Shown one piece after another: positions 37,647-50,411 of a DNA stretch of 64,000 nucleotides (within the stretch, counting starts at the first letter, position 1; the number at the start of each line of letters is the position of its first letter). The DNA is from an uncultured Pseudomonas sp. (GTDB lineage: Bacteria > Pseudomonadota > Gammaproteobacteria > Pseudomonadales > Pseudomonadaceae). Where the stretch lies: the NCBI GenBank assembly GCA_966210435.1, contig CBIHLF010000024.1, forward strand, positions 8,166 through 72,165. Reading direction: 5' to 3'. Below the pieces are notes generated by a model that did no database searches, had not been told where the DNA came from, and saw only the letters and a program-made list of their open reading frames with translations. Position numbers and translations under genes: made by a program.

Positions 37647-38036
37647 TCAGTGCGCCTTGAGTGCACAGTCGAAGGTTTGCGCCGGCGCCACGTCGGTTTC
37701 CCAAGGGCGTTGATAAGTCAGGCGCAGATGGCCCGAGCCCGCGTGCTTGACACTGAAGCGCCAGGTCGAAAGACCGGCGCTGCCGACCAGACCGGCATCT
37801 TCCGGGTTGCTGTAGACCTCGGGGCCGAGACTTTCGAGTACCGTATCGGCGCCATCGCGCAGTACCCAGCGGAAGCCCGTAGTGGGATTGCTGGGCAGCG
37901 TCAGCAGGAGGCTGTCGCCAACGCCAAGGCTTAGCGGGCATTGACTTTGCTTTTGCACAAGTTGGCTACCGGCGTTGTGGGCACAACCGGCCAGTAGCGC
38001 CAGACCGAGCAACGGCAGTACGCGAAGAGTGGTCAT
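37647..38036 (-). CDS. icp: chagasin-family (I42) cysteine-peptidase inhibitor, lipoprotein form (129 aa)
   Basis: Trimmed to MTTLRVLPLLGLALLAGCAH (lipobox). The three chagasin loops are present: NPTTGFRW, GLVGSAG and RPWE. Same position as P. aeruginosa icp (PA0778, from memory). Confidence 0.8.
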   Translation of the reverse strand: MTTLRVLPLLGLALLAGCAHNAGSQLVQKQSQCPLSLGVGDSLLLTLPSNPTTGFRWVLRDGADTVLESLGPEVYSNPEDAGLVGSAGLSTWRFSVKHAGSGHLRLTYQRPWETDVAPAQTFDCALKAH

Positions 38037-38130
38037 CGGTGGGCTCCTTGATCGATGAAGGCTTGCATGGGCGACTTTACCGCGAGCGCCTAGCATAGCC
38101 GCTGTGTGTCCCCGGGCGTAGCGCCTAGGT

Positions 38131-38823
38131 TCAACAGCGCTGCACCCGCTCAATCTGTGCGTCGAGCAGCGGGCCGAACAAGGCGACGCAGTCCTGGGCC
38201 GTGATGCGTGCCTGGGGGGCGTCGATCAAGTCCTCCTGCAGACGTAGCAGCAGGTCGCCTATCGGCAATGATGTCACGAGCCGCTGCAGGCGCTGACAGA
38301 GCAATTGCATCTGCATTTTCAAGCCGGCCGGGCAGCGTCTGTAGTTGGTGGCGCGCAATGCCAGGCCGCGCAGGCGCGCCAGGTCTTCGAGGCTGTGACA
38401 GGCGATGGCCAGCCCTTGCAATTGCGGCCAGGTCGTCAGGCAAAGGTGGTCTTCCAATTGTTCGATGACGATCAGCAGCGCCTCGATCATTTGGCAATGG
38501 GCCTCGAAGTCGGCCGGTTTGCGCCGCAGCTGTGGCCAGTCCTTGTGCAGCGGCGCCAATTGCAGGCTCTCGCCCGGCCAGTTGAGCCAGAGTTTGTCGA
38601 GTTTGCGCGCGAGTGCATTGCGCTGACTGACGCTACCAATGTCCTGCTGGGCTCCGAGGTCACGGTGCATCTGCACCGCTGGCAGCAGTTCGAGGCTGCG
38701 CTGCAGGGTTGTGTATTGCAGGTGGTCGAGGGTGTTTTGGTGCTGGCGTGCCGCGCGCCGGGTCAGCCATTGGCCGAGAATAAACAGCCCCAGGGCCAAG
38801 GCCAGGGCAATGCCGAGTTCCAT
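38131..38823 (-). CDS. membrane-anchored helical Cys-rich protein of unknown function (230 aa)
   Basis: Track ORF. Single N-terminal TM segment (ELGIALALALGLFILGQWL) followed by an all-helical domain with 7 Cys. Only a weak resemblance to the NIT-domain ERG-type repeats (VQMHRDLG, LARLRGLA). Confidence 0.55.
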   Translation of the reverse strand: MELGIALALALGLFILGQWLTRRAARQHQNTLDHLQYTTLQRSLELLPAVQMHRDLGAQQDIGSVSQRNALARKLDKLWLNWPGESLQLAPLHKDWPQLRRKPADFEAHCQMIEALLIVIEQLEDHLCLTTWPQLQGLAIACHSLEDLARLRGLALRATNYRRCPAGLKMQMQLLCQRLQRLVTSLPIGDLLLRLQEDLIDAPQARITAQDCVALFGPLLDAQIERVQRC

Positions 38824-39080: not shown

Positions 39081-39833
39081 ATGCTCAAAGCCCGCCTGCT
39101 GCACCTCGATCACCAGGCCCACGAACACACCCACGATCACCACCAATTGGTGCTGTCGTTGTCCGGGCGCGCGGAATTCGAGGTCAATGGCCGTGGTGGC
39201 GAAGTCTGTCGCATGCGCGCCTGCCTGGTGCCCGGCGATGCCGATCACCAGTTCGCTGGTATCGGCGATAACCGTATGCTGATCGTCGATCTCAACGGGC
39301 AGGGCACCTCCAGCGAAGACCTGGAGCTGCTCACCCATCTGTTCGAAACCCCGCGTTATCCGCAGCTGGATGTGGACTTCCAGCATCTGCTCAGTTATGC
39401 CGGTGCCGAGCTCGAACGCTATGGCAGCGACCCGATGTTGGCGCGTTCTCTGGGCGGGGTGCTGTTGCGGGCCTTACACTTGCGCCTGTTCGGCGAGCAG
39501 GCGCAACGGGCCACCGGGCCGCTCGATCTGGAGCGGCTCGATGCCTTTATCCTGGATAACCTGGCGCGGCGCATCAGCGTCGCCGAGTTGGCGCAGGTCG
39601 CTTGCCTCAGCCCCAGCCACTTTCACGCCCAATTCAAGGACAGCGTCGGCCTGACGCCCCACCAATACCTGCTCAAATCGCGTCTCGATCTGGCCGCGCG
39701 GCTGCTGCGCGAAAGTGCTCTGCCGTTGATTCGTATCGCCGAAGAGTGCGGCTTCTCCAGTCAAAGCGCCCTGACCAATGCGATGCGGCGCTACCTCGGT
39801 CTGACCCCCAAGCGGTTGCGCAGCGCCGATTGA
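39081..39833 (+). CDS. AraC-family transcriptional regulator (candidate proline-utilisation regulator PruR ortholog)
   Basis: Trimmed to MLKARLLHLDHQAHEHTHDHHQLVLSL (cupin-type N-domain). C-terminal AraC HTH (ISVAELAQVACLSPSHFHAQFKDSVGLTPHQYLL...FSSQSALTNAMRRYLGLTP). It follows icp, as pruR (PA0780) does in P. aeruginosa (from memory). Confidence 0.7.
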   Translation: MLKARLLHLDHQAHEHTHDHHQLVLSLSGRAEFEVNGRGGEVCRMRACLVPGDADHQFAGIGDNRMLIVDLNGQGTSSEDLELLTHLFETPRYPQLDVDFQHLLSYAGAELERYGSDPMLARSLGGVLLRALHLRLFGEQAQRATGPLDLERLDAFILDNLARRISVAELAQVACLSPSHFHAQFKDSVGLTPHQYLLKSRLDLAARLLRESALPLIRIAEECGFSSQSALTNAMRRYLGLTPKRLRSAD

Positions 39834-40049
39834 TCGCCTGGCCGGCGTCCCTTCGCGGCGCGGCCGGGTTCCAGTCTGTCTTAGCCGTTTCGCCGCCGGT
39901 TTCTCGTGCCTGGCGGTGGCTGCTTGCCGGTAAAAAAGGTGACCCCAGGCGCACTGCGGACTACTCTGCATGAGATTGAGCGATGAAGTTGCCAGGCTGG
40001 CGAGTCCTTTAATTTGCGGCGCGACTTGCGTCGAATCCGAGCACCAAGC

Positions 40050-40736
40050 ATGACGCAACCATTCAAACCACTGCGCTGGGGCGTTGCTGGCCTCTGTTGG
40101 CTGGTCAGTTCGATGCTTTCGGCGGCCGGTATGCAGGCCGTCCTGGTCGATGCTCAGGGGCAGCCGTTAGCCGATGCGCTGATCACCCTGCGTGGCCCCC
40201 TCGGCGCTGGGGCCGCCGAGCCACCGGCGGTGATGGATCAAGTGGCCCGCCAGTTCCAACCCCGCGTCCTGGCGGTGCACACCGGCAGCGCGGTGAGCTT
40301 TCCCAACAGCGACAATATTCGTCATCACGTCTATACCTTTTCGCCGGCCAAGCGTTTCGAGCTGCGCCTGTATCAAGGCACGCCGAGCGAGCCGGTGATA
40401 TTCGACAAGCCGGGAGTGGTGGTACTGGGCTGCAATATCCATGACTGGATGGTGGGCTACGTTTACGTGACGGACGATCCCTGGTTCGCCGTGGCCGATG
40501 AACAGGGCAGGGTGACCTTCGATGGATTGCCGGCCGGGCGTTACGCGGTCAGCCTGTGGCATCCGCAAGTGCCCGACATGTTGCCGCAGGCGGCCGGCGA
40601 GGTGCAGATCGGCGCGGCCGATCTGCAGCAGCGTTTTACCCTGGGCTTGCGCAGTGCCCCGGCCCCGGTGAGTGGCGAACCTGTCAGCGCGTTTGGCGCT
40701 GCCTTTAAAAAAGCGGCCGACGATGCTGCGCAATAG
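40050..40736 (+). CDS. exported cupredoxin-domain protein with amicyanin-like type-1 Cu ligand set (228 aa)
   Basis: Trimmed to MTQPFKPLRWGVAGLCWLVSSMLSAAG (signal peptide). Core FPNSDNIRHHVYTF ... GCNIHDWM gives the H...C-x2-H-x2-M ligand set, as in amicyanin HCTPHPFM. Ig-like beta segments flank the core. Confidence 0.7.
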   Translation: MTQPFKPLRWGVAGLCWLVSSMLSAAGMQAVLVDAQGQPLADALITLRGPLGAGAAEPPAVMDQVARQFQPRVLAVHTGSAVSFPNSDNIRHHVYTFSPAKRFELRLYQGTPSEPVIFDKPGVVVLGCNIHDWMVGYVYVTDDPWFAVADEQGRVTFDGLPAGRYAVSLWHPQVPDMLPQAAGEVQIGAADLQQRFTLGLRSAPAPVSGEPVSAFGAAFKKAADDAAQ

Positions 40737-43053
40737 CTTTCAGGCGCGTATCGCCATTGTGCTGATCCTGCTGCTGTCGGTGGTGGTCGGTGCGCTGTAC
40801 CTCGCGGTGCAGACGGCGACCAGCGTGGCGGTCCGGAGCCAGGCACGCGAGCAGCTGGAGGTCGGTAGCCTGGTATTTCAGCAACTGCTCGAAGTGCGCG
40901 GTCGGCAACTGCACGATGCGGTGCAGGTGCTCGCCGCCGATTTCGGCTTCAAGGAGGCGGTAGCCAGCGGCGACCACGAGACGATCCGTTCGGCGCTGGC
41001 CAATCACGGCGCCCGCATCAATGCCGACCTGGTACTGATGCTCGGTCTGGACGGCAGCCTGGCGGTCACCACCGATCGGCAGATTCAGGGGCAGACCGCC
41101 CAACGCCTGAGCGCGGAAGTCATGCGGCGACAACGCGAGGGCATGCAGGTTTTCCTGATGCCGATCGACGACAGAATCTATCTGCTGGTGCAAACCACGG
41201 TCAGCGCTCCCCTGCCGATCGCCCGGGTGATGTTGGGGTTCCGCGTGGATGAGGTGTTTGCCGCCGAGCTGCGCGGCTTGACCCACCTCGATCTGACCCT
41301 GGTAGCCAGCCAGGACGGTGTGGCGGATATCTGGATCAGCACCCTCGCCGACGAATCGCGCGCGCAGTTGCAGCGGGACATGGCGGCCGCGGGCGCCCCG
41401 GTCGATACCGCGCAGTTTGCCGACGGTCGTTACCTGGGACAGCGTCTGGTGTTGGCCAGCGGCGACGGCTTCAGCGTGCAGGCGCTGCTGCATAAATCGC
41501 TACGGCAGGCCCAGGAGGCGTTCGCCCCGCTCGATCGAAATATTCTGCTGATTGCTCTGGCCGCCTTGCTGGCCTCCCTCGTCGGCGCCTTGCTGCTGGC
41601 GCGCGGTGTGTCGCAACCGGTGCGGCTCCTGGCCGCGGCTACCGAACGGATCGGTCAGGGCGACTATCAGGCGCCGCTGGAGCTCGATCGCGACGATGAG
41701 TTGGGCAGCTTGGCCAAAGCCTTCCAGGCCATGCAGCAGGGGATTGCCGAACGTGAGCGACAGTTGGCGCATAACGCCCTGCATGATCGTTTGACCGGGT
41801 TACCCAATCGCGCTCTGGCACTCGAACGTCTCGGCACGGCGATCACCGCCCGGCGGCCGTTTGCCTTGCTGTGTCTCGGTGTGGGTAACCTGCGCGCGAT
41901 CAAGGACAGCTACGGCGCCGCTTCTGGCGACCTGGCCGTGCAGCAGCTCGGGCGGCAATTGCAGGGTACCCTGCGGCCTGGCGATAGCCTTGCGCACCTG
42001 CTGCTTGATGAATTCCTCCTGCAGCTCGACGGCTGTGACAGCGATGCCGCGGTGGCCGTGGCCGACCGCATCCTGCGTGCGCTGAGCAAACCGCTGCCGA
42101 TCGGCAATGGCGAGGCGCAACTCGAGTGCCGGGCCGGTATCAGCGCCTACCCGGTCGACGGTGAGACCCCGGACGATCTGCTGCGCCGCGCCGGCATCGC
42201 CATGCAGGATGCCGAGCACCTGCCCGGCCGTCTGCAGGTCTACCAGGAGGGACGTGACGCCGCCCACCAACGGCAGATTCGCCTGATCCGCGACCTCTAC
42301 CGCGCGCCGGAGCGAAGCGAGCTGGTCCTGCATTATCAGCCCAAGCTGGACCTAAAAAACGCCAGGGTGCTGCAGGCTGAGGCGCTGCTGCGCTGGCAAC
42401 ACCCCGAACTGGGGTTGATTTCGCCAGGCGAGTTCATTCCCCTGGCCGAGCGCACGGGAAGCATTCAGCTACTGACGGCGTGGGTCATCGAAGAGGTCTT
42501 GCGGCAGCTGCGCGAATGGGGCTTGCGTGGTCTGCGGGTGCAGGTCTCGCTGAATATTTCCACTGAAGACCTGGTCGACCCGCAACTGCCGGTCCGGGTC
42601 CGGCAGTTGCTGGCGCGTTATCAGGTAGCGCCCGCGCAACTGGTGTTCGAGATCACCGAGAGCGGCGTGATGCTCAACCCAACGGTCGCCCTGCAGGTGC
42701 TGCACGGCTTGCGCGACTGTGGCATCAGCCTTTCGGTGGACGATTTCGGCACTGGCTACTCGTCGCTGACTCAGCTCAAACGCATGCCGGTGCAGGAGTT
42801 GAAGATCGACCAGTCGTTTATTCGCGATCTGGACGACGCCAGCGAGGATTCGGTAATCGTCCGTTCGACCATCGAAATGAGTCACAGCCTGGGCCTCAAG
42901 GTCGTCGCCGAGGGCGTCGAATACCAGCGCAGCCTGTCGCTATTGCAGCATTGGCACTGCGACACCGTCCAGGGCTACCTGATCAGCCGCCCGTTGGCGG
43001 CCAACGCATTCGAGAGCTGGATGGCACAGCCCCTGCGAGAGGTGAACGGATGA
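40723..43053 (+). CDS. inner-membrane signalling protein: TM, periplasmic domain of about 240 aa, TM, HAMP, degenerate GGDEF, EAL (776 aa)
   Basis: Trimmed to MLRNSFQARIAIVLILLLSVVVGALYL (ATG 40723, 14-nt overlap with the previous gene). Second TM ILLIALAALLASLVGALLLA. GGDEF position reads LLDEF, with RPGD five residues upstream. EAL motifs are intact: EALLRW, DDFGTGYSSL, ELKIDQSF, VVAEGVE, QGYLISRP. Confidence 0.85.
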   Translation: MLRNSFQARIAIVLILLLSVVVGALYLAVQTATSVAVRSQAREQLEVGSLVFQQLLEVRGRQLHDAVQVLAADFGFKEAVASGDHETIRSALANHGARINADLVLMLGLDGSLAVTTDRQIQGQTAQRLSAEVMRRQREGMQVFLMPIDDRIYLLVQTTVSAPLPIARVMLGFRVDEVFAAELRGLTHLDLTLVASQDGVADIWISTLADESRAQLQRDMAAAGAPVDTAQFADGRYLGQRLVLASGDGFSVQALLHKSLRQAQEAFAPLDRNILLIALAALLASLVGALLLARGVSQPVRLLAAATERIGQGDYQAPLELDRDDELGSLAKAFQAMQQGIAERERQLAHNALHDRLTGLPNRALALERLGTAITARRPFALLCLGVGNLRAIKDSYGAASGDLAVQQLGRQLQGTLRPGDSLAHLLLDEFLLQLDGCDSDAAVAVADRILRALSKPLPIGNGEAQLECRAGISAYPVDGETPDDLLRRAGIAMQDAEHLPGRLQVYQEGRDAAHQRQIRLIRDLYRAPERSELVLHYQPKLDLKNARVLQAEALLRWQHPELGLISPGEFIPLAERTGSIQLLTAWVIEEVLRQLREWGLRGLRVQVSLNISTEDLVDPQLPVRVRQLLARYQVAPAQLVFEITESGVMLNPTVALQVLHGLRDCGISLSVDDFGTGYSSLTQLKRMPVQELKIDQSFIRDLDDASEDSVIVRSTIEMSHSLGLKVVAEGVEYQRSLSLLQHWHCDTVQGYLISRPLAANAFESWMAQPLREVNG

Positions 43054-43907
43054 TCTATTTGCGCGGCCTCGGCTTGTGTCTGCTTGGCCTCTGGCCGAGC
43101 CTGCTGCTGGCCGATGGGCGTCTGCTCGCCAGCGCTGGTGCGAGCAGCCTTGAGGGCGCCGCAGGTGGCGGAATCACCCCCTGGGCGGTGCTGTCCGGTT
43201 ATGGCGAGCGCGGCGAATGGGGCGCGACGGCGTTCGCCACCCGGGTGGAAACAGGCGATTACCGCCTGGACGCGGCAGGGGTTGCAGCGGCTTTCGATAA
43301 CCGGGTGGAGCTGTCCTATGCACGACAACGCTTCGATCTGGGCAACCTGGCGCGCGGGCTCGACCTTCCGGAAAACAGCCTGAGCCAGGATATATTCGGG
43401 ATCAAGCTACGCTTGTTCGGCGACTTGATCTATGACCGCCTGCTTCAGGTGTCCCTGGGCGTGCAGCACAAGCGGCAGAAGGACTTTCTCATCCCCCGCC
43501 TGGTGGGCGCCCAGCGCAGCGAAGATACCGAGGGCTATCTCAACGCCAGCCGGCTGATCCTCGGCGGCGCCTTCGGTTACAACCTGCTGCTCAACGCCGG
43601 TATGCGCTACAGCCGGGCCAATGAGCTGGGGTTGTTGGGCTTTGGCGGCGATCGTCGCGACCGCCGCTCATTGCTGAAGGAGGGCTCTGCTGCGGTGTTG
43701 TTCAATCCGCGCTGGGCTTTGGGCATGGAATACCGCGAGAAACCCGACAACCTGAACTTTGCCGGCGAAAGCGACTGGGCCGATCTGTTCGTCGGCTATT
43801 TCCCCAATAAGCACCTGGCCGTGGTGCTGGCCTACGCGCGGCTTGGCAGTATCGCCGGGCTGGACAACCAGAACGGCGCCTACCTGTCCGTGCAGGGGAG
43901 TTTCTGA
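43050..43907 (+). CDS. DUF3034-like exported protein, predicted outer-membrane beta-barrel (285 aa)
   Basis: ATGA overlap with the upstream stop. Signal peptide MIYLRGLGLCLLGLWPSLLLA. Alternating hydrophobic strands. C-terminus ...YLSVQGSF, with the terminal Phe typical of OMPs. Confidence 0.65.
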   Translation: MIYLRGLGLCLLGLWPSLLLADGRLLASAGASSLEGAAGGGITPWAVLSGYGERGEWGATAFATRVETGDYRLDAAGVAAAFDNRVELSYARQRFDLGNLARGLDLPENSLSQDIFGIKLRLFGDLIYDRLLQVSLGVQHKRQKDFLIPRLVGAQRSEDTEGYLNASRLILGGAFGYNLLLNAGMRYSRANELGLLGFGGDRRDRRSLLKEGSAAVLFNPRWALGMEYREKPDNLNFAGESDWADLFVGYFPNKHLAVVLAYARLGSIAGLDNQNGAYLSVQGSF

Positions 43908-43909
43908 TC

Positions 43910-44332
43910 ATGCGTATCGCGCTTCTGGCTGCATTGTTGAGCCTGATGGCCTGCGCGCGGGCGCTTCCGCCGCAGGACGACAGCCTGTACCGGGCGCTTG
44001 GCGAGCAGGCCGGGATCACCCGGATCGTCGAAGGCATGCTGCTGAATATCGCCAGGGATAAACGCATCGTCGGTCATTTCGAGAACGTCGATATCGTGCG
44101 TCTGCGCGACAAGCTGGTCGAGCAGTTCTGCGTCGAGGCCGGCGGCCCTTGCACCTACAGCGGTGACAGCATGGAAGAGAGCCACAAGGGCCAGCAGCTC
44201 ACGCCCAGCGACTTCAATGCACTGGTGGAGAATCTGCAGGCGGCAATGAGCGCCGAAGGCATCGCCATGCCCGCGCAAAACCGCTTGCTGGCGCGCCTGG
44301 CGCCGATGCGCGGACAAATCATCGATCGCTAA
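43910..44332 (+). CDS. group-I truncated haemoglobin with lipoprotein signal peptide (140 aa)
   Basis: MRIALLAALLSLMAC (lipobox LMAC). The 2-on-2 globin core SLYRALGEQAGITRIVEGML...GGPCTYSGDSMEESHKGQQLT has a candidate proximal His in the SHKG motif. It starts 2 nt after the previous stop. Confidence 0.75.
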   Translation: MRIALLAALLSLMACARALPPQDDSLYRALGEQAGITRIVEGMLLNIARDKRIVGHFENVDIVRLRDKLVEQFCVEAGGPCTYSGDSMEESHKGQQLTPSDFNALVENLQAAMSAEGIAMPAQNRLLARLAPMRGQIIDR

Positions 44333-44401: not shown

Positions 44402-44617
44402 TCAGGCGCGCTGCATGCCTTGCAGGGCGATCGCTTCGCGCGCCAGGCGCAATTGATCGGCATCCTGGTTCATCCGGTGGATCACATTGAACAGTTGCTG
44501 TTTGAGCAGTTCGTCGCCGATGCGTTCCGCCGCGCGCATTACCGCGATGGCGGCTGCTTCGTTATTGTCGGCGACCAGGTCCAGCGTTTTGCACAGGTTT
44601 CTTGTGGCACGGCTCAC
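44402..44617 (-). CDS. small helical protein of unknown function (about 71 aa)
   Basis: Track ORF 44402..44623. The second in-frame GTG (44615-44617) has an AGGAGG site 7 nt upstream. Same strand as the HDOD gene and about 100 nt downstream of it. No recognisable domain. Confidence 0.45.
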   Translation of the reverse strand: MSRATRNLCKTLDLVADNNEAAAIAVMRAAERIGDELLKQQLFNVIHRMNQDADQLRLAREAIALQGMQRA

Positions 44618-44727
44618 CGGCACACCCTCCTAAAATTCAGTACGCACTTTAGAGCAGCCCTGTTGCGTTTTTGTTGCGCCTTCAGTGGAGCTTGCCGACG
44701 ACTCGCACGTCCCGGTCTAGAGGGTTT

Positions 44728-45600
44728 TCAGCGAAGCGTGTCGGCAATCGCGTGGATGTCTTCGCGATGGTCGACGATCATTCTCAATTCGCCGTTTTCG
44801 CCGATGGAATCCTGCGGTGGAAGCAACTTGCGGTAAGCGGCCAACGCTTGCAGCGGAGGCAAGCCGACATCGATATGGCGTTCTTTCAGGGCGTGGTATA
44901 GCGCCAGATTGACCAGGTCGAGCAGGTCGATACGCGGCCCGCCACTGCATTGCCAGTTGCCGGCCTCGCGGGTCACCTCGATGTATTCGCCGTCCACCGC
45001 CCACTTCTTCAACACGATAATGCCGAGGGACTTGCTGTATTCGCGGCATAGCTTGCCGTACAACTCTGGGTTGGGCGGGGTGCTGGCGTCCCTGAACGCC
45101 GAGAGCACGGCGAGGGTGCCGACTTCGCTGAGCAGGCTGGCGAGCAAGGCGTGCTGCGGCGCCACATGGCCGAGCAGGCGCGCGAGCAGGGCGCTGGTAC
45201 TGGCCTTGAGCACCAGACGGCTCCAGGCTTCGACGAACAGGCGCTTGTGCGCCGGGCTGTGCAGGGTGAACAGGCTCTTGATGCTGTGCACCATGGTAAT
45301 GCGATCGACCTCGCCCATGCCGAGCAGCACGATCACTTCGTTCAGGGTCTTGGGTGCGTGGCTGTGCCGATACAGGGCGCAGGAGGCGTGTTTCATCAGC
45401 AGCGCGCTGAGCGCCGGGTCGCGGCTGATCAGCCGCACCAAGGCGGTCATCGGCACCTGCGCATCGCCCAGGGCGCGGCGAATATCCAGGGTGAGGGTTG
45501 GCAGGCTGGGTAGTTGTTCCTCACCCTGCATCAGCTGTGAAACCACGCGCCGATAGATCGAATATTCCGAAGCTTCGCCAGCCAGGGTGTCCGTGCTCAA
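44728..45600 (-). CDS. HDOD-domain protein (290 aa)
   Basis: TTG start with AGGAG 8 nt upstream. LPSLPTLTLDIRRALGDAQVPMTALVRLISRDPALSALLMKHASCALY is the HDOD signature. Confidence 0.75.
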   Translation of the reverse strand: MSTDTLAGEASEYSIYRRVVSQLMQGEEQLPSLPTLTLDIRRALGDAQVPMTALVRLISRDPALSALLMKHASCALYRHSHAPKTLNEVIVLLGMGEVDRITMVHSIKSLFTLHSPAHKRLFVEAWSRLVLKASTSALLARLLGHVAPQHALLASLLSEVGTLAVLSAFRDASTPPNPELYGKLCREYSKSLGIIVLKKWAVDGEYIEVTREAGNWQCSGGPRIDLLDLVNLALYHALKERHIDVGLPPLQALAAYRKLLPPQDSIGENGELRMIVDHREDIHAIADTLR

Positions 45601-45714: not shown

Positions 45715-46947
45715 CTAGTGCCTTTTCGCCTTGCGGATACGCAAGGCGATGCCGCCGATGATCGCCAGCGCCGCCGGCCCTAGCACGCTGGCGGCCATTT
45801 CCGGCGAGAACGCGATGCCCAGGCTGTGCAAGCCCTCGACGCCGAGTTTGAACAGGCTGAGCAGGTAGTAGCTGATGGCGATGATCGACAGGCCTTCGAC
45901 CGCCTTCTGGATTTTGATCTGGGTGTTGGCGCGGGTATTGAGGCTGCGCAGGATCTCCGAATTCTGCTCTTCCACCTCGACCTGTACCCGGGTTTGCAGC
46001 AGCTCACCGAGGTTGGCCACGCTCTGCCCCAGGCGTAGCAGGCGTTGTTCGGTTACCGCGCAGTAACGCACCGTGGGTTTGAAGCGCCGCTCGATGAATA
46101 CACCGAGGCGCTGGCAGTCGCCGACATGGCTCTCGCGTAGCTCGGTGATGCGTTCGAATACCAGCTGCGCATAGGCCTCGGTGGCGCTGAAGCGCTGCCG
46201 GTGAATCGCCGTATTGCGCACCAGAGTGGCCGAGAGCAGGGCGATATCGCTGAGCAGCTGTTTGGCATTGCTGTTGCCGGGGTCGGCGTTGCGGTCGGAC
46301 AGTTTCGCCAGTTGCTGGTCATAGGCCTTGAGTTGACGATCCACGGTCTGCGCCACCGGCAGCGTCAGCGAGGCCATCATGCGGTAGGTTTCGATTTCCA
46401 GCAGGCGGCGGATCATCCGCCCGAGGCGGTAGGCGTTGAGCCTTCGGTTGACCAGCAGAAGGCGGTTGCGCCCGTCCTCGCTGAGCTGGAAGTCACTCCA
46501 CACCGTGGCATCGCCGCCACCGATATCCGAACCGGCCGGGTCCTTGAAACCATAGCGGGCGTTGTGTCCTTCCCAGTGTTGTTCCGACTCCACGAGGATC
46601 TGCACGGCGTTGATGATCAGTTGCCGGTAGGGCTCGATCAGCGCCGCCAGAGCCTGCGGCAGGGCTGGCCAGAATTCGCCGTTGGCCTGCTTGGGCAGCA
46701 TCAGCGTCAGGGTGAAGAATTCGGCATGTCGCTCCCACTTCAACGGGCCACCATCCATCTGCACCAGGCCCTGGGCGGTACCGGCGGGCCAGGGCGCTGG
46801 CGCAAGCTCGGCGAGCGCGGCGATCACCGTTTCGCTGACGCTGCTCTGGTCGAGCAAGGCGATATGGAAGACGTGAGCCGGTTCGTTGAAATACAGCGAG
46901 GGGCGGGCATGCAGCTCGTTATGCAGGACGGTTCTGAGTGGGTGCAT
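45715..46947 (-). CDS. DUF3422-family membrane-anchored protein (410 aa)
   Basis: Trimmed to MHPLRTVLHNELHARPSLYFNEPAHVFHIALL, the typical DUF3422 N-terminus as I remember it. Two C-terminal TM helices (LSIIAISYYLLSLF, AALAIIGGIALRI). Confidence 0.65.
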   Translation of the reverse strand: MHPLRTVLHNELHARPSLYFNEPAHVFHIALLDQSSVSETVIAALAELAPAPWPAGTAQGLVQMDGGPLKWERHAEFFTLTLMLPKQANGEFWPALPQALAALIEPYRQLIINAVQILVESEQHWEGHNARYGFKDPAGSDIGGGDATVWSDFQLSEDGRNRLLLVNRRLNAYRLGRMIRRLLEIETYRMMASLTLPVAQTVDRQLKAYDQQLAKLSDRNADPGNSNAKQLLSDIALLSATLVRNTAIHRQRFSATEAYAQLVFERITELRESHVGDCQRLGVFIERRFKPTVRYCAVTEQRLLRLGQSVANLGELLQTRVQVEVEEQNSEILRSLNTRANTQIKIQKAVEGLSIIAISYYLLSLFKLGVEGLHSLGIAFSPEMAASVLGPAALAIIGGIALRIRKAKRH

Positions 46948-47234
46948 ACAAGGGTCTGCGCAGTCGAAGGAATGCTGCAGTGACGTAGCCCGGCGCGCTG
47001 GTGTCACGCCTGATCTACCGTTCGGCAGGTTTCCAATGAATCGTCGCAAGAAGTTCCCGTTACTGGAGGTTTCCGCAAAAACTCCAGAGTTTTCAGCAAG
47101 AAGCTGTCATCGCTCTGCCACTAAATTGAGTCGTTCATGGACGCAGTGCGCAGGTTTTGGCCAGTTTGCAATTGGTCATGCCAGCCAAGCTGCGCTAGAC
47201 CGATAACAATACACTCCACAAGAGGATGGGCGTG

Positions 47235-50200
47235 ATGTTCAAAGCCAGTCACGTCTTGCAGAGCGAGTTCCTTCAGGGGATCTCCGACGCCAAGGCCGCC
47301 GATTTTTTCCCTGTCATCAGTGCTAATTACAGCGTTGACGAGGCAGCCTATCTCACTGAGCTCCTTGAGCTCGCCGATCCCGGTGAAGCCGGCATCGAGG
47401 CTATCCGCCGCGGTGCCCGTACCCTGATTCAGGATGTACGTAGCCGGGACAATGCCGTCGATACCCTCGACGCACTGCTTCGTCAGTACAGCCTCGACAC
47501 CCAGGAAGGGCTGATGCTCATGTGCCTGGCCGAGGCTTTGCTGCGCGTGCCGGACGCCGCCACCGCCGACGCGCTGATCCGCGACAAGCTGAACGCCGCC
47601 GAGTGGGAACGCCACCTCGGCAAGAGCGACAGCGTGCTGGTCAATTTCGCCGCCTGGGGCCTGGTGATGACCGGCAAGGTGGTCGACCCGGAAACCGCCG
47701 ACGGTCGCCCGAAGAACGTCCTCGGCCGTCTGATCCAGCGTTCCGGCGAGCCGGTGATCCGCGCCGCGATGAACCAGGCGATGAAGCTGATGGGCAAGCA
47801 GTTCGTGCTCGGCCGCAACATCGCCGAAGCGCTGAAGAATGGCCGCCCGGAACGCGAAAAGGGCTACACCTATTCCTTCGATATGCTTGGCGAAGCGGCT
47901 CTTACACAAGCTGATGCTGAGAAGTACATGGCCGACTACCGCAAGGCCATCGACACCGTCGGTGCCGAAGGGCAGGTCGGACCGGGGCCTAAGCCGTCGA
48001 TCTCGATCAAGCTGTCCGCACTGCACCCGCGTTACGAAGTGGCCCAGCGCGAGCGCGTATTGACCGAGCTGTTCGCCAACGTGCTGGAACTGGCCGTGCG
48101 GGCGCGCAAGCTGGGCGTGGGCATCTCGGTGGATGCCGAAGAAGCCGATCGCCTCGAGCTGTCGCTGGAGCTCTATGAAAAGCTGATGCGCGATCCGGCC
48201 CTCAAGGGCTGGGGCGAGTTCGGCCTGGTGGTACAGGCGTATTCCAAGCGCTGCCTGCCGGTGCTGGTTTGGCTGACCCTGCTGGGCAAGGAACTCGGCG
48301 AGAAGATGCCGCTGCGCCTGGTCAAGGGCGCCTACTGGGACACCGAGATCAAGCAGTGCCAGGTCCAGGGCCTGGACGGCTACCCGGTATTCACCCGCAA
48401 GGAAGGTACCGATACCTCTTATTTGGCCTGTGCACGCTTCCTGCTGTCGGAGTTCACCCGCGGGGTGATCTACCCGCAGTTCGCCAGCCACAACGCCCAC
48501 ACCGTCAGCTGCATCCTGGCGATCGCCGCCGAGCAGAAGCAGCCGCGCGATTTCGAATTCCAGCGCCTGCACGGCATGGGCGACGCGCTGTACGACACCG
48601 TTCTGGAAAAGCACCGCAAGACAGTACGCATCTATGCCCCGGTCGGCGCGCACAAGGACTTGCTGCCGTATCTGGTGCGCCGCCTGCTGGAAAACGGCGC
48701 GAACTCCTCGTTCGTGCACCAGTTGGTCGACCCGAACACGCCAATCGAGTCGCTGCTCGACCATCCGGTGACCCAGCTGCGTGCTTGCAGAACCCTCGGC
48801 AACGACAAAATTCCTCTCCCACCTGCGCTGTTCGGCAGTGCGCGGAAAAATTCTCAGGGCCTAAACATGAATATTCAGCAGACCTGGGCCGAGCTCGAGC
48901 TCGCCTATAAGCCGCAACTTTCCCGTCAGTGGCAAGCCGCCCCGGTGATCAACGGCGAGAAACTCGCCGGCACCGCGCAGGAAGTACGTTGCCCCTACGA
49001 GCTGAGCAAGGTAGTCGGCAGCGCCCAGTTCGCCACTGCCGCCCAGGCGGCCGAAGCCCTGAACGTACTGCACGCGGCCTGGCCACGCTGGAACGCCACC
49101 GCCATCGACAGCCGCGCGAGCATCTTCGAGCGCCTGGCCGACCTGCTCGAAGCCAACCGCGCCGAGCTGATGGCGCTGTGCACGGTGGAAGCCGGCAAGT
49201 CCATGCAGGACGGTATCGACGAAGTGCGCGAGGCGGTGGATTTCTGCCGTTACTACGCCCAGCAGGCGCGCCTGCGTCTGGGCCGCGAAGAACTGCAAGG
49301 GCCGACCGGCGAGCGCAACGAGCTGTTCCATGAAGGCCGTGGCATTTTCGTCTGCATCAGTCCCTGGAACTTCCCGCTGGCGATCTACCTGGGGCAGATC
49401 ACCGCCGCCCTGGTCGCCGGCAACTGCGTACTGGCCAAGCCAGCCGAGCAGACCAGCCTGATCGCCGCGCGCGCTCTTGAACTGATGTTCGAAGCCGGCC
49501 TGCCGAAGGATGTCATCGCCTTCCTGCCGGGCGACGGCGCCACCCTGGGCGGGGTGTTCTGCCGCGATGCCCGCGTCGCCGGGGTGTGCTTCACCGGCTC
49601 CACCGACACCGCGCGGATCATCAACCGCCAACTGGCCGAGAAGGCCGGCCCGATCGCCGCGCTGATCGCCGAAACCGGCGGGCAGAACGCGATGATCGTC
49701 GACTCCACCGCGCTGCCTGAGCAAGTGGTCAAGGATGCCGTGCAATCGGCCTTCACCAGCGCCGGCCAGCGTTGCTCGGCCCTGCGCGTGCTCTACGTGC
49801 AGAGCGATATCGCAGAACGCGTGCTGGACCTTCTCAAGGGCGCCATGGCCGAGCTGAAGGTCGGCCCGACCCACCTGCGTGAAAGCGATGTCGGCCCGGT
49901 AATCGACGCCGAAGCCAAGGCCGGCCTCGAAGCACACATCGCCCAGCTCAAGGGCGAGGGCAAGCTGATCGCCGAAACCGCTCTGCCGGCCGGCCTGGAT
50001 GGCCACTTCGTCGCCCCGGTGGCATTCGAGATCGCTGGCATCGCCGAGCTGCAGAAAGAGAACTTCGGCCCCATTCTGCACATCGTGCGCTTCGAAGCCC
50101 GCGATCTTGAGCAGGTGGTTGCCGCGATCAACGGTACCGGGTACGGTCTGACCCTCGGCGTACACAGCCGCAACGAAGAAACCGCCGCGCGCATCGAAGC

Positions 50201-50411
50201 ACTGGCGCGGGTCGGCAACCTCTATGTCAACCGCAACCAGATCGGCGCCGTGGTCGGCGTGCAACCGTTCGGCGGCTGCGGCCTGTCCGGCACCGGGCCG
50301 AAAGCCGGTGGTCCGAGCTACCTGCTGCGTTTCGTCAACGAACGCACTACCTCGGTCAACACCACTGCGGTGGGCGGCAACGCCTCGCTGCTGTCGCTGG
50401 GCGACGAGTAA
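47235..50411 (+). CDS. putA: bifunctional proline dehydrogenase / L-glutamate-gamma-semialdehyde dehydrogenase PutA (no RHH DNA-binding domain)
   Basis: Start set to MFKASHVL (ATG 47235, AGAGGA 8 nt upstream). PRODH barrel followed by an ALDH domain (FNFPLAIYLGQITAALVAGN, ETGGQNAMIVD, GQRCSALR). About 1058 aa, the P. aeruginosa type. Confidence 0.95.
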   Translation: MFKASHVLQSEFLQGISDAKAADFFPVISANYSVDEAAYLTELLELADPGEAGIEAIRRGARTLIQDVRSRDNAVDTLDALLRQYSLDTQEGLMLMCLAEALLRVPDAATADALIRDKLNAAEWERHLGKSDSVLVNFAAWGLVMTGKVVDPETADGRPKNVLGRLIQRSGEPVIRAAMNQAMKLMGKQFVLGRNIAEALKNGRPEREKGYTYSFDMLGEAALTQADAEKYMADYRKAIDTVGAEGQVGPGPKPSISIKLSALHPRYEVAQRERVLTELFANVLELAVRARKLGVGISVDAEEADRLELSLELYEKLMRDPALKGWGEFGLVVQAYSKRCLPVLVWLTLLGKELGEKMPLRLVKGAYWDTEIKQCQVQGLDGYPVFTRKEGTDTSYLACARFLLSEFTRGVIYPQFASHNAHTVSCILAIAAEQKQPRDFEFQRLHGMGDALYDTVLEKHRKTVRIYAPVGAHKDLLPYLVRRLLENGANSSFVHQLVDPNTPIESLLDHPVTQLRACRTLGNDKIPLPPALFGSARKNSQGLNMNIQQTWAELELAYKPQLSRQWQAAPVINGEKLAGTAQEVRCPYELSKVVGSAQFATAAQAAEALNVLHAAWPRWNATAIDSRASIFERLADLLEANRAELMALCTVEAGKSMQDGIDEVREAVDFCRYYAQQARLRLGREELQGPTGERNELFHEGRGIFVCISPWNFPLAIYLGQITAALVAGNCVLAKPAEQTSLIAARALELMFEAGLPKDVIAFLPGDGATLGGVFCRDARVAGVCFTGSTDTARIINRQLAEKAGPIAALIAETGGQNAMIVDSTALPEQVVKDAVQSAFTSAGQRCSALRVLYVQSDIAERVLDLLKGAMAELKVGPTHLRESDVGPVIDAEAKAGLEAHIAQLKGEGKLIAETALPAGLDGHFVAPVAFEIAGIAELQKENFGPILHIVRFEARDLEQVVAAINGTGYGLTLGVHSRNEETAARIEALARVGNLYVNRNQIGAVVGVQPFGGCGLSGTGPKAGGPSYLLRFVNERTTSVNTTAVGGNASLLSLGDE

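Follow-up and report, generated by a model that had tools for sequence, protein, structure and literature searches.

A conserved four-gene locus of Pseudomonas as a candidate extracytoplasmic haem/copper sensor operon with a c-di-GMP output

RESULTS

Four fused genes for a membrane enzyme and three predicted exported proteins

We analysed a stretch of 64,000 nucleotides from an uncultured Pseudomonas sp. (GenBank assembly GCA_966210435.1, contig CBIHLF010000024.1, positions 8,166 to 72,165), hereafter called the window. The subject of this study is a block of four same-strand genes in the window, the products of which (p1 to p4) are a cupredoxin, a membrane-bound enzyme of cyclic di-GMP (c-di-GMP) metabolism, a DUF3034 protein, and a truncated haemoglobin (trHb) (Table 1). 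A preliminary description made from the sequence had proposed that the four open reading frames (ORFs) are fused at their boundaries, and its coordinates and all three junctions were exact. The stop codon of gene 1 (TAG, 40734-40736) lies downstream of the gene 2 start codon (ATG at 40723), which results in a 14-nt overlap. Genes 2 and 3 share the sequence ATGA (43050-43053) as stop and start, and 2 nt separate the gene 3 stop codon (TGA, 43905-43907) from the ATG of gene 4 at 43910. Independent gene calls on identical metagenome contigs yielded the same four products, with lengths of 228, 776, 285, and 140 amino acids. Furthermore, a scan for terminator-like sites revealed none inside the block.

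The arrangement recurs in orthologous loci. We scanned one genome per species, using an alignment of six DUF3034 sequences as the query, and found a DUF3034 relative in at least 532 species-level genomes; the best 80 loci were analysed. Nearly all of these 80 loci are labelled Pseudomonas or belong to genera recently split off from it. Among the carriers are P. anguilliseptica, P. syringae, P. cichorii, P. gingeri, species of the P. fluorescens group, and members of Stutzerimonas, Aquipseudomonas, Ectopseudomonas, and Phytopseudomonas. The order p1-p2-p3-p4 was found in 71 of the 80 loci; among the remaining nine, most are truncated at the end of a contig, and one represents a true variant. 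The junctions were counted at 78 loci containing all four genes, two of which are identical to the window. The p1/p2 overlap was present at 75 of them, the p2/p3 spacing was between -4 and +5 nt at 69, and the p3/p4 spacing was between -1 and +2 nt at 74. The flanks vary among the Pseudomonas loci: there is an AraC-family gene upstream with HDOD and putA genes downstream, or putA upstream, or neither. In view of the conserved gene order and junctions across loci, chance adjacency was rejected. We conclude, with slightly better than even confidence, that the four genes form one operon and encode an envelope-spanning sensory module.

The p4 globin family combines export signals with an apolar distal pocket

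The preliminary description assigned p4 a lipobox followed by a 2-on-2 globin, and both features are present. The protein matches Bac_globin (PF01152) with 46.8 bits (cut-off, 21; E value, 4e-12). Its closest relatives in the PDB are HbN of Mycobacterium tuberculosis (E value, 1e-12), GlbN, and other group-1 trHbs. The lipobox reads LMAC, and the proximal ligand is His92. Residues were counted in 92 aligned globin sequences and signal types in 91 distinct ones. His F8 and Phe CD1 are present in all 92. The distal pocket of p4 is apolar (Met B9, Leu B10, Leu E7, Leu E11, and Leu G8), and this character is shared throughout the family: B10 is Leu, Met, Ile, or Val and never the near-universal Tyr in all 92 sequences, E11 is Leu, Ile, or Phe and never Gln, also in all 92, and E7 and G8 are apolar as well. 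In HbN, TyrB10 and GlnE11 stabilise bound O2 for dioxygenation of nitric oxide (NO). In a pocket without a hydrogen-bond donor, His-ligated haem binds O2 poorly and NO or CO well, and the H-NOX proteins of facultative aerobes and the periplasmic cytochrome c' behave in this manner. With TyrB10 and GlnE11 lost, p4 is less likely to be a classical globin that binds O2 or dioxygenates NO, and more likely to sense NO or redox state. Lys E10 was considered as a sixth haem ligand, as in Chlamydomonas THB1, and was rejected, since E10 is not conserved outside Pseudomonas. Judged by its residues, p4 represents a divergent, apolar-pocket subclade of the group-1 trHbs and is not a typical trHbN.

A lipobox, usually L-x-[AG]-C-A-Q-Q, was detected in 87 of the 91 distinct globins, and the other four have a type-I signal peptide. 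Moreover, a pair of cysteines (..qfC..GGPC..; Cys74 and Cys81 in p4) is present in 91 of the 92 globins, and in the sole exception both are absent. Loss of the two residues only together is the pattern of a disulfide, which points to an oxidising, periplasmic location; Cys74 and Cys81 are likely to form such a pair. Export of all three accessory proteins, as predicted in the preliminary description, is supported by the aligned homologues: N-terminal signal sequences occur in all those of p3 and p4 and in almost all full-length ones of p1.

p1 is predicted to be a periplasmic type-1 copper protein

The p1 sequence comprises a Sec signal peptide (approximately residues 1 to 26), a cupredoxin embedded in a beta-sandwich that weakly matches CarboxypepD_reg, and a C-terminal basic amphipathic helix. 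A Sec-type N-terminal signal was found in almost all full-length aligned homologues. No Pfam model, cupredoxin models included, matched p1 above its cut-off. In a phmmer search of the PDB, p1 weakly matched pseudoazurin and the cupredoxin domain at the C-terminus of NirK, and the motif C-x2-H-x2-M was aligned. An AlphaFold2 model based on 33 homologues (mean predicted local distance difference test [pLDDT] score, 77) matched amicyanin, pseudoazurin, and plastocyanin in Foldseek with a probability of 1.0 and TM-scores, normalised to the target, of 0.52 to 0.70. The putative type-1 copper ligands H92, C128, H131, and M134 align with His53, Cys92, His95, and Met98 of amicyanin, and the C-x2-H-x2-M loop has the amicyanin length. 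None of the four ligands varies among 33 Pseudomonas sequences or among 10 distant homologues. The earlier reading, a signal peptide and a cupredoxin core with a full type-1 set, agrees with these results. p1 is predicted to be a soluble periplasmic type-1 copper protein. Databases name the family "methylamine utilization protein" or "plastocyanin". There are no methylamine genes in the neighbourhood of p1, and thus the former label is not supported by the gene context.

p3 is predicted to be an outer-membrane barrel of the DUF3034 family

p3 belongs to DUF3034 (PF11231; E value, 1e-108), a family that falls into 791 clusters at 50% identity. A signal peptide and a C-terminal Phe (...QGSF) are present; together with amphipathic strands, they had led to the reading of p3 as an outer-membrane barrel. 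The structural model agrees: built from 48 diverse sequences with AlphaFold2 (pLDDT, 81.5), it is a 12-stranded barrel, and its best Foldseek matches, at a probability of 1.0, are the outer-membrane proteins FapF, OmpG, NanC, Omp33, and a COG4313 channel. A sequence search of the PDB with p3 revealed nothing significant. The family has many invariant charged residues. Its most conserved part is a Gly-rich N-terminal segment (approximately residues 22 to 50). The confidence of the model is low in this segment, which might serve as a plug or for docking.

p2 is predicted to be a membrane-bound c-di-GMP phosphodiesterase

Pfam domains confirmed the layout previously given for p2, in which a transmembrane segment, a periplasmic domain of about 240 amino acids, a second transmembrane segment, and HAMP, GGDEF, and EAL domains follow each other (Table 1). 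The periplasmic domain is dCache_3-like (28.8 bits; cut-off, 25.7), and a PDB sequence search with it found nothing significant. The EAL domain (PF00563) was recognised with an E value of 1e-75. In NCBIfam, p2 partially matches phosphodiesterases of the DibA, DosP, and HmsP types.

The GGDEF domain had been marked as degenerate, and rightly so. In the window the site reads HLLLDEF, with LGVGN where DxD is expected. The A-site is degenerate in all 86 aligned p2 sequences (LLDEF in the window; IGDEF, VADEF, or VNDEM elsewhere). They have also lost the DxD metal site, and most of them retain an RxxD I-site. The EAL motifs (EAL, N, ExxE, DDFGTG, KxD, EGVE, and QGY) are all present in the window and are conserved in nearly all 86 sequences. 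A degenerate GGDEF domain next to intact EAL motifs suggests that p2 acts as a phosphodiesterase only, with a regulatory pseudo-cyclase domain. We thus predict from the motifs that p2 is a c-di-GMP phosphodiesterase, the GGDEF domain of which probably serves as a nucleotide-binding regulatory domain. At the P. lactucae locus, a second p2-like phosphodiesterase (54% identity) is encoded immediately upstream of p1.

Outside Pseudomonas, the DUF3034-globin pair accompanies transducers with different outputs

Eleven loci from ten distinct genomic contexts outside Pseudomonas were collected by profile search and contig look-ups, and their ORFs were searched with the window proteins. The DUF3034 gene adjoins a gene for an exported globin at all 11 loci. 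At 10 of them (nine of the ten contexts), genes for a p1 homologue and for a Cache/HAMP membrane protein adjoin the pair. Marinobacter and several unrelated metagenomic gammaproteobacteria contain the four families as a cluster; co-occurrence beyond close relatives had been set beforehand as a test that could refute the proposal, and it was found.

The output of the membrane sensor differs between the loci. Degenerate GGDEF and EAL domains are present at six loci, namely in Marinobacter, on a Tara Oceans marine contig, and on four other contigs from metagenomes or metagenome-assembled genomes (MAGs). At two loci (L090 and L095), a HAMP-Ser/Thr kinase of approximately 865 amino acids with a Cache-like periplasmic domain is encoded with the p1 homologue, next to DUF3034 and the globin. 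The two Rhodanobacter-type loci (L088 and L092) have the order DUF3034, globin, p1 homologue, and a Cache-like membrane protein of 354 amino acids, which has no output domain and weakly matches CHASE4, dCache_1, and Salyut. The p1 protein of this type is a lipoprotein with an Ala/Pro-rich linker of approximately 110 amino acids, and a linker of this length, enough to bridge the periplasm, would fit a role of p1 as a go-between.

The invariant core of all these loci is the DUF3034-globin pair. The same three exported proteins together with a Cache/HAMP protein whose outputs are swapped is the pattern of a sensory input module, and since the three proteins also recur with a Ser/Thr kinase output, they may form a sensing cassette of general use.

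A candidate promoter lies upstream of gene 1

A promoter-like element is located upstream of the gene 1 ATG (Table 1). Of 83 distinct upstream regions from orthologous loci, 34 contain a motif of this type, [CG]TGA[ACT]-N16-18-CTAnnCT, at 83 to 122 nt before the p1 start, compared with 0.16 in shuffled sequences. Its conserved form is GTGA(A/T)CTT-N13-G(G/A)CTA..CT. GAACTT-like -35 elements recall promoters of the extracytoplasmic function (ECF) sigma factor or AlgU type, and a promoter of this kind would suit an envelope function of the operon. A generic sigma-70 scan found no promoter upstream of the operon, and an Rfam search revealed no RNA element.

Neighbouring genes

The AraC-family gene upstream of the operon was considered as a member of the module and rejected, since it accompanies the operon in put-linked lineages only. 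Further upstream lie a gene for an Inhibitor_I42 lipoprotein and a gene without a Pfam match. An Inhibitor_I42 gene is also located near the operon at another locus (L091). Downstream, a short ORF separates the operon from an HDOD-domain gene, which is convergent with the operon and is followed by the DUF3422 gene and putA. An HDOD homologue was found directly downstream of the operon at approximately 14 Pseudomonas loci, and also three genes from the p1-kinase cluster of L090, where a Porin_5-like gene follows that cluster. The HDOD gene and the operon may have a looser functional association. One record labelled Janthinobacterium sp. contains a whole Pseudomonas-like operon with a DUF3034 protein 76% identical to that of the window; mislabelling or contamination of the record could account for this, as could horizontal transfer of the operon.

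Table 1. Coordinates of the operon, its predicted elements and neighbours in the window, and of related loci on other contigs
Feature	Position	Strand	Details
Inhibitor_I42 lipoprotein gene	37647-38153	-	chagasin-like
Gene for a 230-aa protein	38131-38823	-	no Pfam match
AraC-family gene	39081-39833		upstream of operon
Candidate promoter	39939-39967	+	GTGACC, 17-nt spacer, TACTCT; about 85-110 nt before gene 1 ATG
Gene 1 (p1)	40050-40736	+	228 aa; predicted exported cupredoxin
Gene 2 (p2)	40723-43053	+	776 aa; dCache_3-HAMP-degenerate GGDEF-EAL
p2 dCache_3 domain	40837-41358	+	Pfam
p2 HAMP domain	41593-41745	+	Pfam
p2 GGDEF domain	41776-42219	+	Pfam
p2 EAL domain	42289-42993	+	Pfam
Gene 3 (p3)	43050-43907	+	285 aa; predicted DUF3034 barrel
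Gene 4 (p4)	43910-44332	+	140 aa; predicted lipoprotein trHb
p4 lipobox Cys15	43952-43954	+	LMAC
p4 proximal His92	44183-44185	+	
ORF between operon and HDOD gene	44402-44623	-	73 aa; no Pfam match; annotated as 71-aa gene on identical contigs L001-L004
HDOD-domain gene	44728-45600	-	convergent with operon
DUF3422 gene	45715-46947	-	
putA	47226-50411		
Second p2-like phosphodiesterase gene, P. lactucae	L076, 2433-4736		immediately upstream of p1
Locus of the DUF3034-globin pair, Pseudomonas MAG	L036, 6517-9281		after a diguanylate cyclase gene
p1 homologue-kinase cluster	L090, 3242-7668	-	next to DUF3034 and globin
p1 homologue-kinase cluster	L095, 9372-12753	+	next to DUF3034 and globin
Rhodanobacter-type cluster	L088, 9550-11537		DUF3034, globin, p1 homologue, Cache-like protein
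Rhodanobacter-type cluster	L092, 9080-11052		DUF3034, globin, p1 homologue, Cache-like protein

DISCUSSION

An extracytoplasmic sensor with NO as the most likely ligand

In our view, the locus is best explained as an extracytoplasmic haem/copper sensor operon, with NO as the most likely ligand, which feeds a modular transducer; we assign this explanation as a whole a probability of roughly 0.55. The preliminary description had proposed a periplasmic input for redox state, O2, NO, or copper to c-di-GMP turnover. The conserved co-occurrence of the families supports the input module. Two parts of the proposal have to be modified: c-di-GMP is one output of several, and O2 is disfavoured as the input.

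In the model, p4 would be a haem-b globin on the periplasmic face of the outer membrane, anchored there beside the barrel p3. A small ligand or an oxidant would alter the p4 haem in its ligation or redox state. The apolar pocket has no hydrogen-bond donor to stabilise O2, which makes NO the leading candidate. p1 would exchange electrons with p4 or dock on it, the periplasmic Cache domain of p2 would read the state of p1, and HAMP would relay the signal, so that the EAL phosphodiesterase activity of p2 is switched and the c-di-GMP level changes. Export and co-inheritance of the proteins are the starting point of this model; every step past them is something that we infer, and this holds for cofactor loading, protein contacts, ligand, and direction of regulation alike.

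Several observations weigh against this explanation. At the Dokdonella locus, DUF3034 and the globin are present without p1 and without the sensor. In a Pseudomonas MAG (L036), the pair lies 254 nt downstream of a gene for an unrelated diguanylate cyclase, a multi-pass membrane protein whose GGEEF site is intact, and the cupredoxin and the phosphodiesterase are absent from that locus. The occurrence of the pair without p1 and p2 at these two loci argues that DUF3034 and the globin function without a strict need for p1 or p2. The upstream region of the operon contains no conserved Anr/Dnr (FNR-type) box or sigma-54 promoter that could make its expression dependent on O2 or NO. Conserved Cys, His, or Met residues, which would suggest direct metal sensing, are absent from the periplasmic domain of p2; this would fit the binding of a protein or a small molecule and is not diagnostic. 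A freely diffusing gas such as NO needs no dedicated outer-membrane barrel, which leaves the role of p3 unexplained. Finally, p4 is predicted to be exported by Sec and must then gain non-covalent haem in the periplasm. Such loading is assumed here; periplasmic acquisition of non-covalent haem is known for cytochrome b562.

Detoxification, copper handling, and outer-membrane electron or haem transfer as alternatives

The main rival of a sensory role is periplasmic detoxification. In this case, the globin would consume NO, as a dioxygenase or a reductase, or peroxides, the cupredoxin would re-reduce the ferric haem, and the barrel would bring in or take away a substrate or product, for example nitrite or nitrate. 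The Cache domain of the phosphodiesterase, which would only be co-expressed, would sense something else. The closest solved relatives of p4 are indeed NO-dioxygenating group-1 trHbs, such as the M. tuberculosis HbN, and a type-1 copper protein would be a natural one-electron donor. Many carriers (Stutzerimonas, Marinobacter, Rhodanobacter, and Dokdonella) come from genera known for denitrification, and the pair of DUF3034 and globin can stand alone. However, the two residues TyrB10 and GlnE11 are replaced in all 92 aligned globins, and no reductase that could feed the cupredoxin is encoded nearby. Furthermore, it is hard to see why a plain enzyme should travel with a Cache-type transducer, with three different outputs, at 10 of the 11 loci outside Pseudomonas. 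We therefore consider detoxification unlikely.

Two further explanations start from individual components. If the module were devoted to copper sensing or handling, p1 would report periplasmic copper to the Cache domain of p2, p3 would be a channel for copper or another metal like the 12-stranded PcoB/CopB, and the globin would be an accessory redox partner. The invariant copper-binding ligand set of p1 would suit this, as would a small 12-stranded barrel with many invariant charged residues, and periplasmic cupredoxin-like proteins such as CopI act in copper resistance. The ligand set itself, however, speaks for another function, since His-Cys-His-Met with an amicyanin-length loop is the geometry of electron-transfer blue copper proteins and not a Met/His-rich trafficking site. 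Met/His-rich segments are absent from p1 and p3, PcoB is not among the top 50 structural matches of p3, and no cop, cus, or cue genes were found in the examined neighbourhoods. With no role left for the strictly conserved haem globin, we regard a copper function as quite improbable. The third explanation is an outer-membrane redox or haem device, either a relay, similar to Cyc2 and rusticyanin, that would carry electrons from an extracellular donor or acceptor via the barrel and the haem protein to the cupredoxin, or a haem-handling pair, with the sensor monitoring the flux. A barrel, a haem protein, and a periplasmic cupredoxin are the component list of the Cyc2-rusticyanin system of Acidithiobacillus, and the barrel and the globin are inseparable in every sampled lineage. 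However, Cyc2 is a fused barrel of 16 strands and MtrB one of 26 strands, and a 12-stranded barrel would be too narrow for a globin of 120 amino acids or for haem. p4 is predicted to be a separate lipoprotein with a single b-type haem, and the cluster has no linked genes for a TonB-dependent receptor, a haem ABC transporter, or cytochromes. We regard such a device as very improbable.

Implications of an exported haem-copper input

If a sensory role is accepted, a broader and more tentative proposal can be made, which we put forward as a possibility below even odds: the DUF3034 barrel, the exported apolar-pocket trHb, and the type-1 copper protein may constitute an unrecognised class of extracytoplasmic haem-copper receptors. 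They would sense NO, another small haem ligand, or an oxidant at the outer membrane and would signal across the periplasm, by electron transfer or partner switching, to Cache transducers with interchangeable outputs (c-di-GMP phosphodiesterase or Ser/Thr kinase). If true, a truncated haemoglobin would for the first time have a sensory role (we know of no T-family globin with an established sensor role), DUF3034 would have its first function, and a missing input from NO to c-di-GMP would be supplied in the many Pseudomonas lineages that carry the operon. c-di-GMP enzymes are numerous and their known input signals few, and the perception of NO and redox state by Pseudomonas for biofilm dispersal is resolved only in part. 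The operon is a testable candidate with two predicted metalloproteins that are spectroscopically tractable. Its carriers span plant-associated lineages (P. syringae and P. cichorii) and soil, aquatic, and marine lineages (P. fluorescens group, Stutzerimonas, and Marinobacter). In addition, a role is proposed for the uncharacterised DUF3034 family, and a clade of exported truncated haemoglobins without the canonical distal residues is defined.

Comparison with known systems

The preliminary description knew of no characterised system of this composition, and our full-text literature search likewise found no description of the operon, of a DUF3034 function, or of an exported truncated haemoglobin paired with a barrel. 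The name DUF3034 in a paper on retrons sits among mentions of DUF3037 and is unrelated to the operon.

Among known c-di-GMP systems, YfiBNR (TpbB) of P. aeruginosa and Escherichia coli is similar in that one operon encodes a lipoprotein of the outer membrane, a soluble protein of the periplasm, and a c-di-GMP enzyme of the inner membrane with HAMP and a sensor domain in the periplasm. In that system, the envelope or redox state controls c-di-GMP. However, the two systems share no homologous component. The lipoprotein YfiB is Pal/OmpA-like, YfiR has a fold of its own, and YfiN is an active cyclase, whereas the operon described here encodes a predicted haem globin, a predicted blue copper cupredoxin, and a predicted EAL phosphodiesterase with a dead GGDEF domain, and adds a dedicated outer-membrane barrel as a fourth part. 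In line with this, Pfam and NCBIfam searches with the four products gave no YfiB or YfiR match, and p2 scored 86.5 bits against the NCBIfam model DgcN/YfiN, far under its cut-off of 325.

The H-NOX/HaCE and NosP systems resemble the operon in having a stand-alone haem protein encoded beside a c-di-GMP enzyme or a kinase. Moreover, p4 shares with H-NOX a distal pocket without a hydrogen-bond donor, the feature that makes the H-NOX proteins of facultative aerobes selective for NO. H-NOX and NosP are cytoplasmic and have unrelated folds, whereas p4 is a 2-on-2 globin, predicted to be exported and lipidated, which is paired with a cupredoxin and a barrel and would signal via a periplasmic Cache domain. 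In globin-coupled sensors and in DosC/DosP, too, a haem protein governs c-di-GMP synthesis or hydrolysis in response to a gas. There, the haem domain is a 3-on-3 globin or a haem-PAS domain, fused and cytoplasmic, in contrast to the separate, exported truncated globin predicted here.

At the level of the individual metalloproteins, p4 shares His F8, Phe CD1, the GGP motif, and the length of the 2-on-2 domain with the trHbN proteins of M. tuberculosis (HbN), Paramecium, Chlamydomonas, and Shewanella benthica. Its clade differs from them by the lack of TyrB10 and GlnE11 and by the addition of a lipoprotein or Sec signal, the Cys pair, and an obligate DUF3034 neighbour. Similarly, p1 has the fold and the His-Cys-His-Met ligand set of amicyanin, pseudoazurin, and plastocyanin, with the loop length of amicyanin. 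In contrast to these proteins, it has an extra beta-sandwich and the C-terminal basic amphipathic helix, and its gene has no linkage to genes of methylamine dehydrogenase or nitrite reductase. In summary, control of c-di-GMP by haem-based sensing or by partner switching in the envelope is known as a general kind of regulation, and it is the composition of this module and its location that are new.

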